Shown piece after piece: positions 1,531 through 8,830 of a stretch of 32,257 bases of DNA. The notes under the pieces are model-generated. The model did no database searches. It had not been told where the DNA came from and saw nothing but the letters and a program-made list of their open reading frames with translations. How positions within the stretch are numbered: position 1 is the stretch's first letter; every line of letters starts with the position of its first letter. The DNA is taken from the IMG/VR virus record IMGVR_UViG_2541047777_000015. One strand, 5' to 3'. The stretch is from a virus (lineage: Duplodnaviria; Heunggongvirae; Uroviricota; Caudoviricetes). The position numbers were made by a program, and so were the translations under genes.

Positions 1531-2319
1531 ATGACAAATCTACAACTGGAAGAAAGATTTAGGGCGCTTGAGAAAGATTACGATGCGCTCATTTCCACAA
1601 AATATACTGCGCAGAACGTTCTCACTCACACTATGGAAACCTATGTTGATTCTGGTAAATATAAAAACTGGATCGCCAGAGTGAAAAAGTTAATAGAGGA
1701 CAGCTACGGAAAAGAGTCTGATTATTACAATGACTTCAATACTGTAAACAGCAGGTGGTCTTCTAATTACAATACACTGATCAAAAGTTATAAACCGTTG
1801 TTTGATGCGGCGAGAGATGATCTTGCGCACTCTGCTGTCAGTACTAATACTCCTCAAGAAGGTTCGCCGCTGAGCCTCGTACTTAATATTCTTAACAGGT
1901 TTCCGACCTTTGTTCGCCAGTTAAAGAGGCGGTACAACGGCCGTGCGCCGCTTGAAGTTAATGATGAGTATGACGTACAGGATTTGATTTATGCACTGCT
2001 GACGCTTCATTTTAATGATATTAGGGCGGAAGAGTATACCCCCAGCTTTGCGGGCGCGGCCTCAAGACAGGACTTTCTTTTGAAAAAAGAGAAAATTGTG
2101 ATAGAGGTGAAGAAAACCCGTGAATCTCTGGGAGCGGGTAAAGTTGGTGGAGAGTTGCTTATTGATATGGCGCGCTACCGCGCTCACCAAGACTGCGATA
2201 CGTTGATCTTGTTTGTATATGACCCGGATTGCTACATAAATAATCCTTTGGGCGTGAAAACCGATCTGGAATCTAAAGACGCGGAAGGAAAAGTGAAGGT
2301 TGTTATTGCGCAGTTCTGA
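1531..2319 (+). CDS. hypothetical protein with PD-(D/E)XK-like C-terminal region (putative nuclease); second gene of an IS2-split operon
   Basis: ATG at 1531 preceded by GGAAGG; 262 aa. The N-terminal part looks helical (LEERFRALEKDYDAL); the C-terminal part has acidic-then-ExK spacing (EYDVQDLIYALL ... EKIVIEVKK) suggestive of a restriction-endonuclease-like fold. The start overlaps the stop of the upstream frame (ATGA). The track start at 1300 lies inside IS2 and is rejected. Family not recognised. Confidence 0.7.
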   Translation: MTNLQLEERFRALEKDYDALISTKYTAQNVLTHTMETYVDSGKYKNWIARVKKLIEDSYGKESDYYNDFNTVNSRWSSNYNTLIKSYKPLFDAARDDLAHSAVSTNTPQEGSPLSLVLNILNRFPTFVRQLKRRYNGRAPLEVNDEYDVQDLIYALLTLHFNDIRAEEYTPSFAGAASRQDFLLKKEKIVIEVKKTRESLGAGKVGGELLIDMARYRAHQDCDTLILFVYDPDCYINNPLGVKTDLESKDAEGKVKVVIAQF

Positions 2320-2352
2320 CACGCTTAAGTGTCACCTTACAGGATTAGGTTT

Positions 2353-2400
2353 GCGGCCGTGCCAGCAGGACGAGCATGAAAAAGGCCGCTGGCACGGCCG
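2353..2400. terminator. stem-loop between convergent genes (putative terminator)
   Basis: 13-bp perfect inverted repeat CGGCCGTGCCAGC / GCTGGCACGGCCG with an 18-21 nt loop, followed on the plus strand by a T-rich stretch (GATTTGTCATCTTTG). Lies between the stop of 1531-2319 (+) and the stop of 2407-2700 (-). Confidence 0.5.
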
Positions 2401-2406
2401 GATTTG

Positions 2407-2700
2407 TCATCTTTGCCAGGTCAAATCAAAATCTACGTGAAAATCCGCAGGCTTAAGCTCGCAACTGCCACCACGCCCAATTAACGACGTTATGTTTACA
2501 ACGTTTGAACCTGTTGAGATGGCAAGTTGAGTGTCATCTGTAAACGTGATGATTAGCATTTCAGTCTGATGAACCTGTACTCCAGTTTTCTGAAAACCAA
2601 TCTGGACAGATTTCACCGTTTTCCCAACCATTTCACGGGCTTGATTGATAGAGTAATTAGCTTCAACTTGTAGGTCATTCCTGAACTTGGGTAGTGTCAT
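2407..2700 (-). CDS. hypothetical protein (97 aa)
   Basis: ATG at 2700 with a strong RBS (AAGAGGA, 7 nt spacing). Predicted beta-rich small protein; no family recognised. Confidence 0.7.
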   Translation of the reverse strand: MTLPKFRNDLQVEANYSINQAREMVGKTVKSVQIGFQKTGVQVHQTEMLIITFTDDTQLAISTGSNVVNITSLIGRGGSCELKPADFHVDFDLTWQR

Positions 2701-2910
2701 TTTACATCCTCTTTAGTGAAGTTTTCGCTATTTAAATCAGCAGCATTCCTTTTAAATCACTGGCATGTCAGCAGTGGATAGTCTGAGTGTAACGTCCAGT
2801 GAGGGGAATAAATATTGGTCAGACTTTGCACAAAAGAGCCAACTATCGCGGGCTCTCTCTCATCATGTGCGAAAATTGACCACAATATGAAATCCAGTTC
2901 CATTCCGAAA

Positions 2911-3746
<836 letters not shown>

Positions 3747-3809
3747 CTTATAATCCCTACTAGTTAGCATTATGATTTCCAGAGTGAGGAATATAAAAAT
3801 CTCTGTTTC

Positions 3810-3891
3810 TGGCACATAACAGCCCTTAAGATCGTAGCTCGCCATCATGGGGTGTCGGGGGGCGGAGGTTCAAATCCTCTCGTGCCGACCA
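3810..3891 (+). tRNA. tRNA-Pro-like partial/degenerate copy (3' half canonical), probable att-site copy, not a functional tRNA
   Basis: 3845-3891 reads TCATGGGGTGTCGGGGGGCGGAGGTTCAAATCCTCTCGTGCCGACCA: anticodon-loop-like AUGGGGU, T-arm GGAGG/TTCAAAT/CCTCT, acceptor 3' strand and CCA, matching my recollection of E. coli tRNA-Pro(GGG). The 5' part (3810-3844) only loosely resembles a tRNA 5' half (no D-arm, extra bases), so no cloverleaf forms. Confidence 0.55.
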
Positions 3892-3904
3892 AAAATCCCT
3901 TAAG

Positions 3905-3931
3905 AACCAGCCTATTATGGCTGGTTTTTTT
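3905..3931 (+). terminator. rho-independent terminator
   Basis: AACCAGCC-TATTAT-GGCTGGTT stem-loop followed by a run of 7 T, directly downstream of the tRNA-like 3' end. Confidence 0.75.
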
Positions 3932-4071
3932 ATGATTGTTTTTTATGCGGAGAAATACCGGGGAATAATTGGGGTAAAACACCTTTAGGCTATTCACTTA
4001 GCCTACCACCATCAAAATCTTTCCGAATGTATCCATCTCTTTTTTCTTATGCAGCTAAAACGAAGTCTTGA

Positions 4072-4119
4072 TACTGTTTATTTACACAGATAAGAATAAT
4101 ACTGTCTACAAACGCAGTA
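4072..4119 (+). promoter_or_regulatory. tandem LexA (SOS) boxes in the dinI-like promoter region
   Basis: TACTGTTTATTTACACAGAT (4072-4091) and TACTGTCTACAAACGCAGTA (4100-4119) both fit CTGT-N8-ACAG / CTG-N10-CAG. A TTGATA -35-like hexamer lies at 4067-4072. Confidence 0.65.
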
Positions 4120-4132
4120 CAAAAGAAGTGTT

Positions 4133-4311
4133 ATGCGTATTGAGATCTCCATAGCCAAAGACAAAATGACCAAATGCCAAACGGCGCTGTGGACGCGTTA
4201 AAGGAAGAATTAACCCAACACATTGGCAAGCGTTATGACGATGTGGAGATGATCGTAAAAGCCACCAGCAACGATAGTTTTTCAGTTAGACATACTGCAG
4301 ATAAAGATTGA
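4133..4311 (+). pseudogene. dinI-family (DNA-damage-inducible protein I-like) gene, frameshifted and C-terminally short
   Basis: ATG 4133 gives [22 protein letters not shown] (stop 4199-4201). A second frame from 4174 gives [45 protein letters not shown] (stop 4309-4311). Joined, they align with DinI (MRIEVTIAKTSPLPAGAIDALAGELSRR...), implying a 1-nt indel near 4165-4175. Confidence 0.6.
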
Positions 4312-4735
4312 GCTAAAACTTTCGTTCAGGAAACTCTGAATGATACCTGAGAGTCTACTGAAGAGTTGTTTGTTCACTAGTTAGCACGTAGGAAATCATT
4401 CAATACTCGCACTATCGGAAGTTCACCAGCCAGTCGTAGCACGTCCTTGCAAACGACGTGCCTACGGTTTCAATCACCTCTCACCATCAATTCTATCAAT
4501 AATAATTAAACAGCGCCTAGACAAAATAAATAACAACAAGTCAACAACCTCGACAGGATGCCGATGGGATGATGAAGAGATAAGAAAGAATAACCAGTAA
4601 AGCCCTAAAACGTCAGCGTTCAGACGCGTTTTTTACTTAATCGGTAACAAATACGTTGTATCATAGCAAAATAAAATGATTGTTCTAAATCAGATTAACT
4701 CCTCACTTTTGTACAATGTCGCTTACAGGTATACC

Positions 4736-6625
4736 ATGAAATCCGAGACGCTAACTGTCCAACAACTTTTTCAAGACCGCCGACAATACTGTGTTCCATT
4801 CTATCAACGTGCCTATGTATGGACTCAGCAAGACCAGTGGTCAGCTCTACTGGAGGATATCCTAGAGAAAGTACAATCCCGGCTCTCGGGTACAAAACCA
4901 ACTCCCCATTTCCTTGGTGCGGTTGTACTGGAACCTCAATCAAAAAAAGGATTATTAGGTGTAGATTCCATACATATTATTGATGGTCAGCAACGATTGA
5001 CCACTCTTCAATATGTTCTGGCATCCATCCGATTAGCATTACGTGCTACGGATCTTTCCAGCTTAGAGGCTCTCATTTCGCCTTGCCTGAAAAACTCAAA
5101 CGAAGACACAATGCGAAATAAAGAAGTAGAACGCTTCAAACTGTGGCCAACTTTTCGGGATCAAACTCATTTTATTCAAAGTTTTAATGTTGAAAATATT
5201 GACGATCTCCGGGACGTATTCTCTGATAGTTTCACGCAGCATGGTACGTTGCGTAAGCATTTTAATCACCCGCCATCACTAGAAGCATTATGTTTTTTTA
5301 CTGAAGCCTTTATAAAATGGATTAAAATAGAAAACCACTCACCACAAGAAAATGCTGTAGCTCTAATTGAGGCTGTCTTAACAGATCTGAAACTGGCAAG
5401 CATATTTCTCGAAGCTGAAGATGATGCCCAAATAATTTTTGAAACATTAAATGGGCGAGGGGCGGAACTTCATGCTACGGATCTTATTCGCAACTATATC
5501 TTTATGTGCGCTGAGCATGAAAATATTAATGCTATTGAATTATATGAAAATGAGTGGAAGAGCTTTGAAGATAAATACTGGTCGGAAAAACAACGCCGTG
5601 GACGTATTAATAAACCACGCATGGAGTGGCTAGTACATGCGACATTGCAATCAGAAAGGCAACGTGAAATTGATCTGTCTCGCCTTTACAATGAGTATCG
5701 TGATTATGTAAGTAAGGACTTGTCTTCACAACGAGCAGATCTGCAAGTAAAGCGCCTCAAACAATATGCATCACAATATAAAGAATTGGTTGATGGTTTT
5801 GGCACAACCCCCATCTCACACTTTGGATATCGCATCGCAGACTATGATGTGACGACACTTTATCCGCTTGCTTTGTTCATTTCGATAGCTAACATCGCTG
5901 ATGATGAGAAAGCAGCCATGTATAATGATCTTGTCTCCTACGTAGTACGAAGAGCCGTATGTGGCCTGACGCCAAAGAATTACAACAATGTATTTATGAA
6001 TGTATTGCGGCACTTGGCTAAAACGGAAATTTCCAGTGTTGAGTTACGTAATATCCTCAATAACTTAAATGGCGAAGCCTCACGTTGGCCTGGTGACTCA
6101 GAATTTCTCAACGCTTGCATCAATGCTCCACTTTATCCTGGCAGGCTCGACGCACCGAAAATGCGCTCAATGTTAACGGAACTTGAAAGAGAACTTTGTC
6201 GCCAAGTAAAGACAGAAAAGCCTGATGTTCCAAATCTTTCTAATCTCGATATCGATCATCTTATGCCTCAAAGTTGGTATTCCTGTTGGCCTCTCGAAAA
6301 TGGTCGTATGGTGACAAATTCAGATGCTACGGTATTGAACCAAATTGTTCTGTCTGGAACCGATCTTACCCCTGAACAGCTACTGGTAAGGAAACGGCAA
6401 CAAGCGATATCTACTTTGGGAAATCTAACTTTGCTTAACCTTAGCGTAAACCGTTCTGTTCAGAATGCTGTATTTCTGAAAAAACGTGATGCTCTCATCG
6501 TCCACACCAATCTACGACTGAACATTCCACTTATAGTTAAGGATAAATGGGATGAGGATGAAATCCTGGAGCGGGGTAAAAAGTTGGGGGAAATTGCATT
6601 GAAAGTATGGCCAAAACACGATTAA
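4736..6625 (+). CDS. GmrSD-family type IV (modification-dependent) restriction endonuclease, DUF262 (ParB-like NTPase) + DUF1524 (His-Me finger)
   Basis: 629 aa. N-terminal DUF262 motifs (YCVPFYQRAYVW; IIFETLNGRGAELHATDLIRNYIF) and C-terminal DUF1524-like motifs (DIDHLMPQSW; LGNLTLLNLSVNRS). ATG at 4736 with AGG 7 nt upstream; the track ORF starts at 4676. Confidence 0.85.
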   Translation: MKSETLTVQQLFQDRRQYCVPFYQRAYVWTQQDQWSALLEDILEKVQSRLSGTKPTPHFLGAVVLEPQSKKGLLGVDSIHIIDGQQRLTTLQYVLASIRLALRATDLSSLEALISPCLKNSNEDTMRNKEVERFKLWPTFRDQTHFIQSFNVENIDDLRDVFSDSFTQHGTLRKHFNHPPSLEALCFFTEAFIKWIKIENHSPQENAVALIEAVLTDLKLASIFLEAEDDAQIIFETLNGRGAELHATDLIRNYIFMCAEHENINAIELYENEWKSFEDKYWSEKQRRGRINKPRMEWLVHATLQSERQREIDLSRLYNEYRDYVSKDLSSQRADLQVKRLKQYASQYKELVDGFGTTPISHFGYRIADYDVTTLYPLALFISIANIADDEKAAMYNDLVSYVVRRAVCGLTPKNYNNVFMNVLRHLAKTEISSVELRNILNNLNGEASRWPGDSEFLNACINAPLYPGRLDAPKMRSMLTELERELCRQVKTEKPDVPNLSNLDIDHLMPQSWYSCWPLENGRMVTNSDATVLNQIVLSGTDLTPEQLLVRKRQQAISTLGNLTLLNLSVNRSVQNAVFLKKRDALIVHTNLRLNIPLIVKDKWDEDEILERGKKLGEIALKVWPKHD

Positions 6626-6875: not shown

Positions 6876-7370
6876 ATGATGCCATTTGCTCGTTATTTCT
6901 GCATTTTCATAAACGTTGGTTTGGGAGAAGCCTCAAAATTGAATGTGGGTATGCCGGAAAAACGGCCCCCTGATATGCCGCTCTCAACCGGTATGAGATG
7001 CAATGGAGAGTCTTTTTTTGCTGAAGAAGACGGGCAAATGGCTAAGGCTTATACGGTAAATATATGGCGTGCAGTGGGTGTTGAGGTTATTCCTGGTTGT
7101 GATTATGGGCGCACCGGTTATTCTAGGTGTTCTGTTCCCTCAACAACATTGCCCTCTGTAGTTCCTAATAATGTGCTGGTAGTTATCCCTTCGGGATCTA
7201 CAAGCGCTTATGGTGCTAAATTTACCGATACTGCAGGTTTTGAAGCGACGAGGGGTAATATTATTGCCAGCAACGGGAGGGATCATTCCATTTTGTTCAA
7301 AGTCGCCATAACCCTGATTGCAGCCCGTCCTCGCGACATTAGAGTCAACTCTATCGTGATTGGAGGGTAA
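6876..7370 (+). CDS. alternative tail-fibre variable C-terminal segment (S'v-like) inside the invertible segment
   Basis: The ORF begins in the left crossover repeat; residues VGLGEASKLNVG repeat the [12 protein letters not shown] encoded at the end of the constant tail-fibre ORF. It can only be fused to the constant part after inversion. Confidence 0.55.
   Translation: MMPFARYFCIFINVGLGEASKLNVGMPEKRPPDMPLSTGMRCNGESFFAEEDGQMAKAYTVNIWRAVGVEVIPGCDYGRTGYSRCSVPSTTLPSVVPNNVLVVIPSGSTSAYGAKFTDTAGFEATRGNIIASNGRDHSILFKVAITLIAARPRDIRVNSIVIGG
6904..6929. repeat. hix/gix-like inversion crossover site (left, inverted relative to 8831-8856)
   Basis: Reverse complement TTCTCCCAAACC-AA-CGTTTATGAAAA resembles the 26-bp hix consensus TTATCAAAAACC-AA-GGTTTTTGATAA. 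A ~45-bp inverted repeat with 8805-8848 shares a 16-bp identical core TTGGTTTGGGAGAAGC. It lies ~55 bp upstream of the pin remnant. Confidence 0.6.
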
Positions 7371-8830
7371 TGGATAAAGCAATATTCTATAGACGCGTTA
7401 GTACAACAATTGAACTGCATGTTTTGTTTTATAAATATGAGGATGAAGGTCCGCATCATAATGACATTTTAAAAAAATATCTTGCAGTAGGTGAGCATTT
7501 CCCGGGACTTTCCCGACTAGGTACAGAAGGTAGCCATGACGCTGCTGGTGGTCTATTTCGGTTTATGTCTCTACCTTCATCGGAAGAGGATCAGGTGTAT
7601 ACGGGTGAAATCGTCAAAATATCCTAGGTGTGAGAATTAAAAACATACACCACACCCGGTCAGTACCCTGACAATACTGCCACTGTTCGCCCATTAGCCG
7701 CATAAGATGAGTAAGATGGTTCGAGGCGGGATTCCCAGGCTGCACCGGAGCTTATCGATGCAGTCTACGCGGCAGAAGTAGAATGGCATTCACCTCTGGC
7801 TGCTGCAGTCAGTTGCAATCCTGCGCTTTGGCTGTATTTATTGCCCGGACGGAATCAGTTTAATGCAGAACAAAGTTGAGCTGGGTTTTTTCTGGATGAC
7901 ATAGACGCGGTGCCGGCAACAAATTCCGGCGAATCAGACGGAGGCAACCGACTTGAGCTGCAGGAAGTGTCGGACGTTCAATTTCTGGCGCGTATACTGC
8001 GGCGATCTGTTCTGCCGCAGCAACGGACTCCAACCTCTCATCATACTACTTATCGTACTCCCTTATCGGAGGAACAGTGGTAGCATTGTCAGGGCACTGA
8101 CCGGTTGCTATGAAGGGATTGACTTCTGAAGTCTAAGAGATATAGACGATTTCAGCGGGCTGGTCTTCCACATATTTCCAAGAAGTTGGAGTCTCAGACC
8201 GTAATGTCGGATATCAACCGTCATGTCCAATTGGTTTCCCTAGTGAGTGCAGTGCAGGAAATCGATCACATATGTCTATAGTATTTCTAGTAATAGCAAC
8301 AGAATGCGTTGTCTCACCATCATAGTCATGAACGATATCATCCACTTCCTTTCTAGTAACTACGGGTGTAATGAATACTGCTTTCTTCATTACCCTGCAC
8401 TCATTAACTAGTTGACGGCGATGTCGCAAGGAAAGGTAGCGTCCGGTTTAATGGCCACTGTACACACCACGGACTTGTTATCCCTGTTAGCAACGATAGT
8501 GTAAACCGCCGTCGCTCAAATACCTGCTAAATTACTGGATACACCACCATAAGCGGTTGAAGTTCCCAGGGGGATAACTAGCACCACATAAATAGTAACT
8601 ACAAATGGCACTTTTGTTGAGGCCACAGAACGCCTTTTATAAACTGCGCGCCCATCATCCCAATCAGTAATTCACTTCCCAGCCAATTGACGCAATATAC
8701 TTGCCGTAACCACCTTTGTCAGTTCCGGGTAAGGTTCAGGAATAACAGAAGTACCGTTGCAATTCGGACCCCCCGTGGAAGACGTGTCTGAAGGTCATTG
8801 AACACGGATACCAACATTTAATTTTGCCGC
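6930..8830. other. invertible tail-fibre segment (G/P-segment-like), largely decayed
   Basis: Bounded by the inverted hix/gix-like sites. Contains the S'v-like ORF and a small ORF on the plus strand; the minus-strand region 7630-8795 has only short, stop-interrupted frames. Confidence 0.55.
7370..7627 (+). CDS. hypothetical protein (85 aa), possibly a tail-fibre assembly chaperone remnant
   Basis: ATG overlaps the stop of the S'v-like ORF (TAATG), which is the usual position of a tail-fibre assembly gene. No family recognised. Confidence 0.4.
   Translation: MDKAIFYRRVSTTIELHVLFYKYEDEGPHHNDILKKYLAVGEHFPGLSRLGTEGSHDAAGGLFRFMSLPSSEEDQVYTGEIVKIS

Follow-up and report, generated by a model that had tools for sequence, protein, structure and literature searches.

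A probable proL-type attachment-site relic inside an ssrA-integrated prophage of Escherichia coli

The element at positions 3810-3931 of the window, by which we mean the whole stretch of 32,257 nucleotides analysed here (IMGVR_UViG_2541047777_000015), is very probably a fossil, an orphan proL-type attachment-site module which was stranded in an ssrA-integrated prophage when the integrase module of the phage was swapped. According to this model, the attP of the lineage would have consisted of a core identical to the 3'-terminal 47 nt of proL and the following 8 nt, the phage's own copy of the proL terminator, and an SOS-controlled dinI. In a recombination between lambdoid phages, an unrelated module targeting ssrA (tmRNA) would have taken the place of the proL integrase and its P arm, and the core, the terminator and the dinI side would have remained joined to the tail-fibre end; we infer both the direction and the mechanism of this swap. 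The prophage would now be located at ssrA, with the proL piece about 2.9 kb inside its left end and unused for integration, and the relic would form the conserved right edge of a slot into which defence genes are swapped. An orphan attachment-site relic inside a prophage with another integrase is an expected product of mosaic evolution.

The window represents the chromosome of a B2-group E. coli, and its positions 3300-4500 are 100% identical in UTI89, S88, APEC O1, ATCC 11775 and others. It begins approximately 390 nt past the 3' end of ssrA and stops in the early region of the prophage. In UTI89 and ATCC 11775, the left part of the region is ordered as ssrA, an REase-like ORF, a small ORF, the GIY-YIG gene and the tRNA-like piece, which is followed rightward by a dinI-like pseudogene, a gene annotated as "DUF262", an invertase fragment and tail fibre genes, then by genes for a Mu-like tail, an HK97-like head, lysis and early functions, and at the right end by a xis-like gene, the integrase gene, three cargo genes and glaH. 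The tRNA-like element is located between ssrA and glaH and not at yejM-proL-yejO, the native tRNA-Pro locus. The prophage body to which we assign the relic (6626-32257, minus strand, late genes and part of the early genes) encodes the invertase fragment, tail fibres, a Mu-like baseplate and sheath, an HK97-type head, terminase, lysis proteins and Q; the integrase gene and the right attachment site lie about 10-12 kb past the end of the window. The tail-fibre segment beside the invertase gene fragment (6949-8311) differs from that of UTI89, with both flanks being 99% identical, and looks like an alternative or inverted tail-fibre cassette.

The tRNA-like element and its terminator

The core of the element on the plus strand (3845-3899, TCATGGGGTGTCGGGGGGCGGAGGTTCAAATCCTCTCGTGCCGACCAAAAATCCC) corresponds to E. 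coli proL, the gene of tRNA-Pro(GGG), from the anticodon arm to the CCA end and 8 nt beyond it. In the alignment of the native gene to 3845-3899 (TCATGGGG...CCAAAAATCCC), 54 of 55 nt were identical, and the sole mismatch was a T to G change at position 3862 in the variable loop. The part through CCA (CCA at 3889-3891) comprises exactly the 47 nt at 3845-3891, in line with the original prediction of a tRNA 3' half of about this length. The first base of the core is exactly position 30 of native proL; in the standard cloverleaf register, the anticodon stem of native proL (L004 2982-3058) itself has a U-U opposition at 30-40. A real tRNA-Pro gene was found in all 5,426 complete E. coli genomes (5,426/5,426), where it matches window positions of about 3834-3933 at 86-88%. 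Cores of the phage type are carried by about 600 E. coli genomes.

Positions 3810-3844 on the same strand (TGGCACATAACAGCCCTTAAGATCGTAGCTCGCCA) are an eroded pseudo-5' half of proL, as judged by alignment to proL and to a family of related flanks, and consist of the acceptor 5' strand TGGCACA, a disrupted D arm and a damaged 5' strand of the anticodon stem. Taken alone, the flank from the window is weakly proL-like (z about 2-3, with an empirical tail of 0.2-3.5% depending on scoring). Related flanks are present in at least 25 viral contigs, and their consensus, TGGCACATAGC-AGCC-(CTTAAGAC)-GGTAGC-.CGCCG, corresponds to the proL 5' half, from which it differs by a deletion of 2 nt and an insertion of about 7 nt in the D loop. 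The best-preserved members of this family had z = 4.2, equalling the top of 32,152 null windows, and matched the Rfam tRNA model over its full length with 24-25 bits (best 25.3). The loose resemblance of the 5' half to a tRNA, which had been noticed before, is therefore supported at the level of the family. The related loci are unrelated to each other upstream of the approximately 50 nt adjoining the core, and their mean pairwise identity was about 92% in the core versus 66% in the pseudo-5' half. Judging from these alignments, the pseudo-5' half appears to be a decaying proL 5' half carried along with the orphan lineage. Because functional attP sites possess a different P arm (see below), this lineage may come from an attL-type junction that had been captured (tRNA 5' half, core and P') rather than from an attP.

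Two sets of candidate minus-strand genes in this region were tried and rejected. Those starting in the 5' half (AAGGG-N6-ATG) had ORFs of 1-60 aa that were unconserved, and those starting from the ATG complementary to the CAT of the anticodon loop had ORFs of 3-96 aa, in which conservation was confined to the approximately 50 nt adjoining the core and substitutions showed no codon periodicity.

The T arm of the element is intact and 6 of the 7 pairs of its acceptor stem are still possible, which, together with the full-length 24-25-bit matches of the better-preserved relatives, would be compatible with a functional, if unusual, phage-encoded tRNA-Pro or tRNA-like RNA. Nevertheless, ARAGORN found no tRNA gene in the window and none in the 25 related loci. 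Rfam at gathering thresholds had no match in the window, and at relaxed thresholds its tRNA family RF00005 matched positions 3810-3888 over the full length with 15.5 bits, compared to a gathering score of 29. The D arm is not intact, as it carries the 2-nt deletion and the insertion of about 7 nt and lacks the conserved GG, the anticodon stem is broken by a G29 to A change, and changes in the acceptor 5' strand are uncompensated across the flank family. The z-score of folding was -1.4 for the tRNA-like part and -0.3 for native proL, and hence the stability of the fold is uninformative. We conclude that the element is not a functional tRNA gene, as had been anticipated, and we consider a functional RNA of either kind extremely unlikely.

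The core is followed by the intrinsic terminator of the P' arm (3902-3931, plus strand), a phage version of the proL terminator with the hairpin AAGAACCAGCC-TATTAT-GGCTGGTTTTT and further T residues. Positions 3902-3929 are predicted to form an 11-bp stem with a T7 tail (deltaG of -16.8 kcal/mol, z = -4.9), and 0 of 200 shuffled sequences were as stable. With its G+C-rich hairpin, its T-run and a stability exceeding that of the shuffles, this is a predicted rho-independent terminator, and a strong one, as originally proposed. It is homologous to the native proL terminator and differs from it by compensatory changes in the stem, where CCAACC/GGTTGG is replaced by CCAGCC/GGCTGG. The rest of the conserved P' arm (3932-4350, plus strand) consists of a spacer, a LexA box and the dinI-like pseudogene (4133-4350, according to the annotation in UTI89 and ATCC 11775) and is 97-99% identical to proL-integrated prophages; for the whole P' arm, from the phage-type terminator to dinI, the identity to these prophages was 97-99.7%. 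The LexA box (4074-4089, consensus CTGT-N8-ACAG), which we read directly from the sequence, lies upstream of the dinI-like pseudogene and overlaps a predicted promoter.

Relatives integrated at proL and free phages

In EM22-18-53, an intact plus-strand proL is directly followed by the same terminator, the dinI pseudogene, the DUF262 gene, the invertase fragment and tail fibre genes. A complete sister prophage is found at proL in EC_J_9, in the order yejM, proL, terminator, dinI pseudogene, GmrSD gene, and tail to head to early genes; its integrase side consists of int, a hypothetical gene, the P arm, the same 55-bp core, the native terminator and yejO. The 55-bp core is the attL/attR direct repeat of this prophage. 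From about position 3834, i.e., inside the tRNA-like element, up to yfdR, the prophage in the window is 97-99% identical to that of EC_J_9, which covers tail, head and early genes; past yfdR, the xis/int regions share no similarity. The same 55 bp serve as the attP core of the phages Flotzy, Eeyore and Phi06 (Phi06_2987). Flotzy and Eeyore are free phages in which int, about 140 nt, the core with the terminator, cargo, dinI and a tail fibre gene follow each other, representing a canonical attP. Since the arrangements in EC_J_9, EM22-18-53, Flotzy and Eeyore match, the core and the arm to its right belong to the P' side of the right-hand phage. At the level of sequence it is clear that core and terminator of proL-type phages would rebuild a properly terminated proL upon integration, and the terminator would also shield the prophage end from tRNA read-through.

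The original prediction took the tRNA-like copy to bound an element on its left, as its plus-strand orientation did not seem to fit the minus-strand late genes of the prophage on its right. This argument does not hold, because the proL-integrated relatives have exactly this combination of a plus-strand tRNA with minus-strand late genes downstream, which is normal for the family. The proposed comparison with related strains did support the attachment-site origin of the fragment through the sister prophages at proL, but it assigned the fragment to the right-hand prophage.

To what extent the element still resembles a working attP can be seen from 105 loci on viral contigs, defined as those that carry the core together with the phage-type terminator. 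At these loci, the proL-type integrase was always paired with a P arm of the type '..CAGCG.TTTTA..GCGGTG', and its presence 135 nt to 1.6 kb upstream marks functional attP sites, whereas none of the loci with a window-type flank had an integrase upstream. The window shares with the attP of Flotzy, Eeyore, Phi06_2987 and EC_J_9 the core identical to the 3' end of proL (54/55), the terminator of the CCAGCC/GGCTGG type, and the downstream P' arm with cargo, dinI and tail fibre/invertase genes. However, the lambda-Arm-type integrase and the characteristic P arm that lie directly upstream in these phages are both missing, and the prophage in the window carries an unrelated integrase of the ssrA type.

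Fragments of tRNA 3' ends at prophage ends are textbook knowledge. Duplications of tRNA or tmRNA 3' ends at the ends of integrated elements are found for P22 at thrW, P4 at leuX and CP4-57 at ssrA, and the general principle is reportedly described by Campbell and by Williams in 2002. As in these cases, the element in the window carries the 3' portion of a tRNA gene, which is regenerated by integration, and the identity starts in the anticodon arm. In contrast to them, the fragment is not beside its target gene, is unpaired, and lies inside a prophage at another locus.

The tRNA-Pro locus at yejM/yejO is a published prophage attachment site: it harbours the cryptic gtrIC prophage of Shigella flexneri (PMC4924310), which makes proL a natural attachment locus in the E. 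coli/Shigella group. That prophage derives from a different phage, with a CP4-57-like integrase directly downstream of the tRNA gene (PMC4924310). Among the literature retrieved on proL prophage sites and module exchange, only this Shigella paper was directly relevant, and a description of the relic family was not found there. An internally deleted relic copy is present in Gifsy-2 of Salmonella (NC_010393 44256-44334; L010 1507-1585), about 1.5 kb from sseI. Here, a segment comprising T arm, acceptor and terminator is located near the prophage end, downstream of sseI, and is 91% identical over 79 nt; it differs from the copy in the window by the deletion of the anticodon arm, the Salmonella host, and a prophage that is not annotated at proL.

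Present boundaries of the insertion

The whole inserted block of about 43 kb is bounded by direct repeats of the ssrA type. The repeat is 185 nt long and 91% identical, corresponds to the last 32 nt of ssrA and about 150 nt downstream including the ssrA terminator, and exactly two copies flank the insertion in UTI89 and ATCC 11775. The outer flank of the right repeat is the native ssrA-downstream sequence of strains without the insertion. A second core of the proL type was found at neither end of the insertion, and the window and the 80-kb UTI89 region contain only one. Thus, of the two counterparts that had been expected for the fragment, the intact tRNA-Pro gene is found as proL in the complete E. 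coli genomes, but a second core flanking the insertion is absent from the UTI89 region. With no second core and at the wrong locus, the proL fragment is not a current attL or attR. The interpretation as an att-type boundary was correct in that the fragment is derived from an attachment site rather than being a gene; the present bounds are the ssrA repeats. An arrangement of tandem elements split by a third copy of the ssrA core was rejected, as no third copy was found.

The integrases also differ: the window-type enzyme has an Arm-DNA-bind_2 domain and the proL-type enzyme a lambda Arm-DNA-bind_1 domain, i.e., they belong to different families. The same window-type integrase (95-98% identity) is encoded at the ssrA locus of GN4143 and SCU-101, where it is followed by different cargo and then by the attachment site. 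From this position and its recurrence we infer that the ssrA repeats are used by the window-type integrase. In UTI89, the left ssrA-type copy is the intact ssrA, and the right repeat (L002 21136-21314, outside the window) lacks 5 nt of the acceptor 3' strand (CCAG-----CCA), which suggests that the crossover took place downstream of the tmRNA 3' end.

These boundaries bear directly on the proposal that the fragment bounds a separate tRNA-integrated element to its left, consisting of the GIY-YIG/REase/IS2 region, so that two independently acquired elements would abut here. DNA of different history does meet at the relic, as no counterpart of the left block was found in sequenced phages and its place is taken by other genes in relatives. 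This block, however, has neither an integrase nor another proL core, is flanked by the intact ssrA and the relic within a unit that has only two ssrA repeats, and faces a core and downstream arm that are contiguous with the right-hand prophage in the proL-integrated relatives. IS2 (105-1434), which had been counted among the parts of the left element, is located between ssrA and the first cargo ORF and is absent from the otherwise collinear UTI89 and ATCC 11775; it is an independent, later insertion. A separate left element is therefore very unlikely, and the GIY-YIG/REase block is a slot for variable cargo within the att-bounded prophage itself.

The cargo slot and the fate of the relic

The variable slot for defence cargo extends from the ssrA junction to the relic (1531-3809) and contains an ORF with a REase_DpnII-MboI domain (1531-2319, plus strand), a small ORF (2407-2700, minus strand), and a full-length PD-T4-3 GIY-YIG defence gene (2911-3684, minus strand) with its upstream region. 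No match to this left block was found in sequenced phages. On the prophage side of the relic lies a gene whose only annotation is 'DUF262' (4676-6625, plus strand); it encodes a GmrSD-like type IV restriction enzyme and occupies the corresponding position in the proL-integrated relatives. Three genes of the defence type (for the REase_DpnII-MboI protein, PD-T4-3 and the GmrSD-like enzyme) flank the relic. A perfect 12-bp palindrome, TGTCAATTGACA (3734-3745), overlaps the -35 hexamer that is predicted on the minus strand upstream of the PD-T4-3 gene, and is possibly an operator.

The same layout recurs with different cargo. SCU-101 contains a lambda-tailed phage with the window-type integrase, in which the sequence of ssrA and of the 153 nt following it is 98.6% identical to that of UTI89; its slot holds an unrelated gene for a 306-aa protein, followed by the relic starting from the same base (…CCATCATGGGG…), the same terminator and dinI. 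The ssrA 3' end was found 1.0-2.9 kb upstream of the relic on the same strand at 13 of the 105 loci on viral contigs, and these 13 contigs had at least seven different intervening cargo sequences. Variability is likewise seen between the ssrA-type integrase and the right attachment site: this slot contains a hypothetical gene together with genes for DUF4325 (STAS-like) and HATPase-like proteins in UTI89 (L002 19114-20984), genes for an AAA ATPase and a DNA adenine methylase in GN4143 (L006 7423-10136), and two hypothetical genes in SCU-101 (L007 7437-8625).

What role does the relic play in this architecture? Its terminator probably acts as a terminator or insulator for the cargo slot. Several loci have a plus-strand cargo gene whose end lies 0-3 nt upstream of the core, so that the terminator of the relic is the first one downstream; there, it may end the transcription of such genes, and it may still insulate the LexA-controlled dinI region. 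In the window, the adjacent cargo gene (PD-T4-3, minus strand) reads away from the terminator.

The higher conservation of the core could mean ongoing selection or homogenisation, so that the element would not be a pure fossil. One explanation along these lines is that the orphan site is maintained as a recombination anchor and as a terminator or insulator of the cargo slot, possibly also as a decoy attB. The recurrence of the architecture with conserved flanks and variable cargo, the cargo genes that run up to the core and meet the relic terminator first, and the better conservation of the core compared to the pseudo-5' half agree with it. Yet the core may owe its conservation to recombination with proL-type phages, where it is under selection, and the gene next to the terminator in the window points in the wrong direction. 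A further hint comes from the viral contig IMGVR_UViG_2851654087_000003 (79.6 kb), which, in the parts covered (L022 and L032), has two cores on one strand: the first has a 5'-half-like flank and is located near the contig end, and the second has a proL-type integrase upstream and the tail genes of a second phage downstream. Integration of a proL-type phage in the orphan site of another prophage would be expected to produce this arrangement, which we regard as suggestive. In E. coli, a chimera of P arm, core and phage terminator, used as a query for the junction expected from such landing-pad use, was found in 0 of 5,426 genomes. Taken together, we consider it unlikely that the site is maintained in this way. 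Slightly less unlikely, though still improbable, is the general proposition that ssrA-integrating lambdoid phages actively keep the pseudo-proL and its terminator as an anchor and insulator of the cargo slot, and maybe as a landing pad for proL phages.

The preferred explanation, an orphan attachment site left behind by an integrase swap, has consequences for annotation. A tRNA-like fragment near a prophage end need not mark where the prophage or an adjacent island ends. In the present case, the true boundaries are formed by the repeats of the ssrA type, and the tRNA-Pro fragment is the record of a former integration specificity. With backbones that are 97-99% identical, unrelated integrases and two chromosomal sites, the case represents a clean, datable exchange of an integrase module. 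The relic also edges a recurrent slot for defence genes (PD-T4-3 and the REase-like gene, with GmrSD nearby), and could help to locate cargo hotspots of lambdoid prophages.
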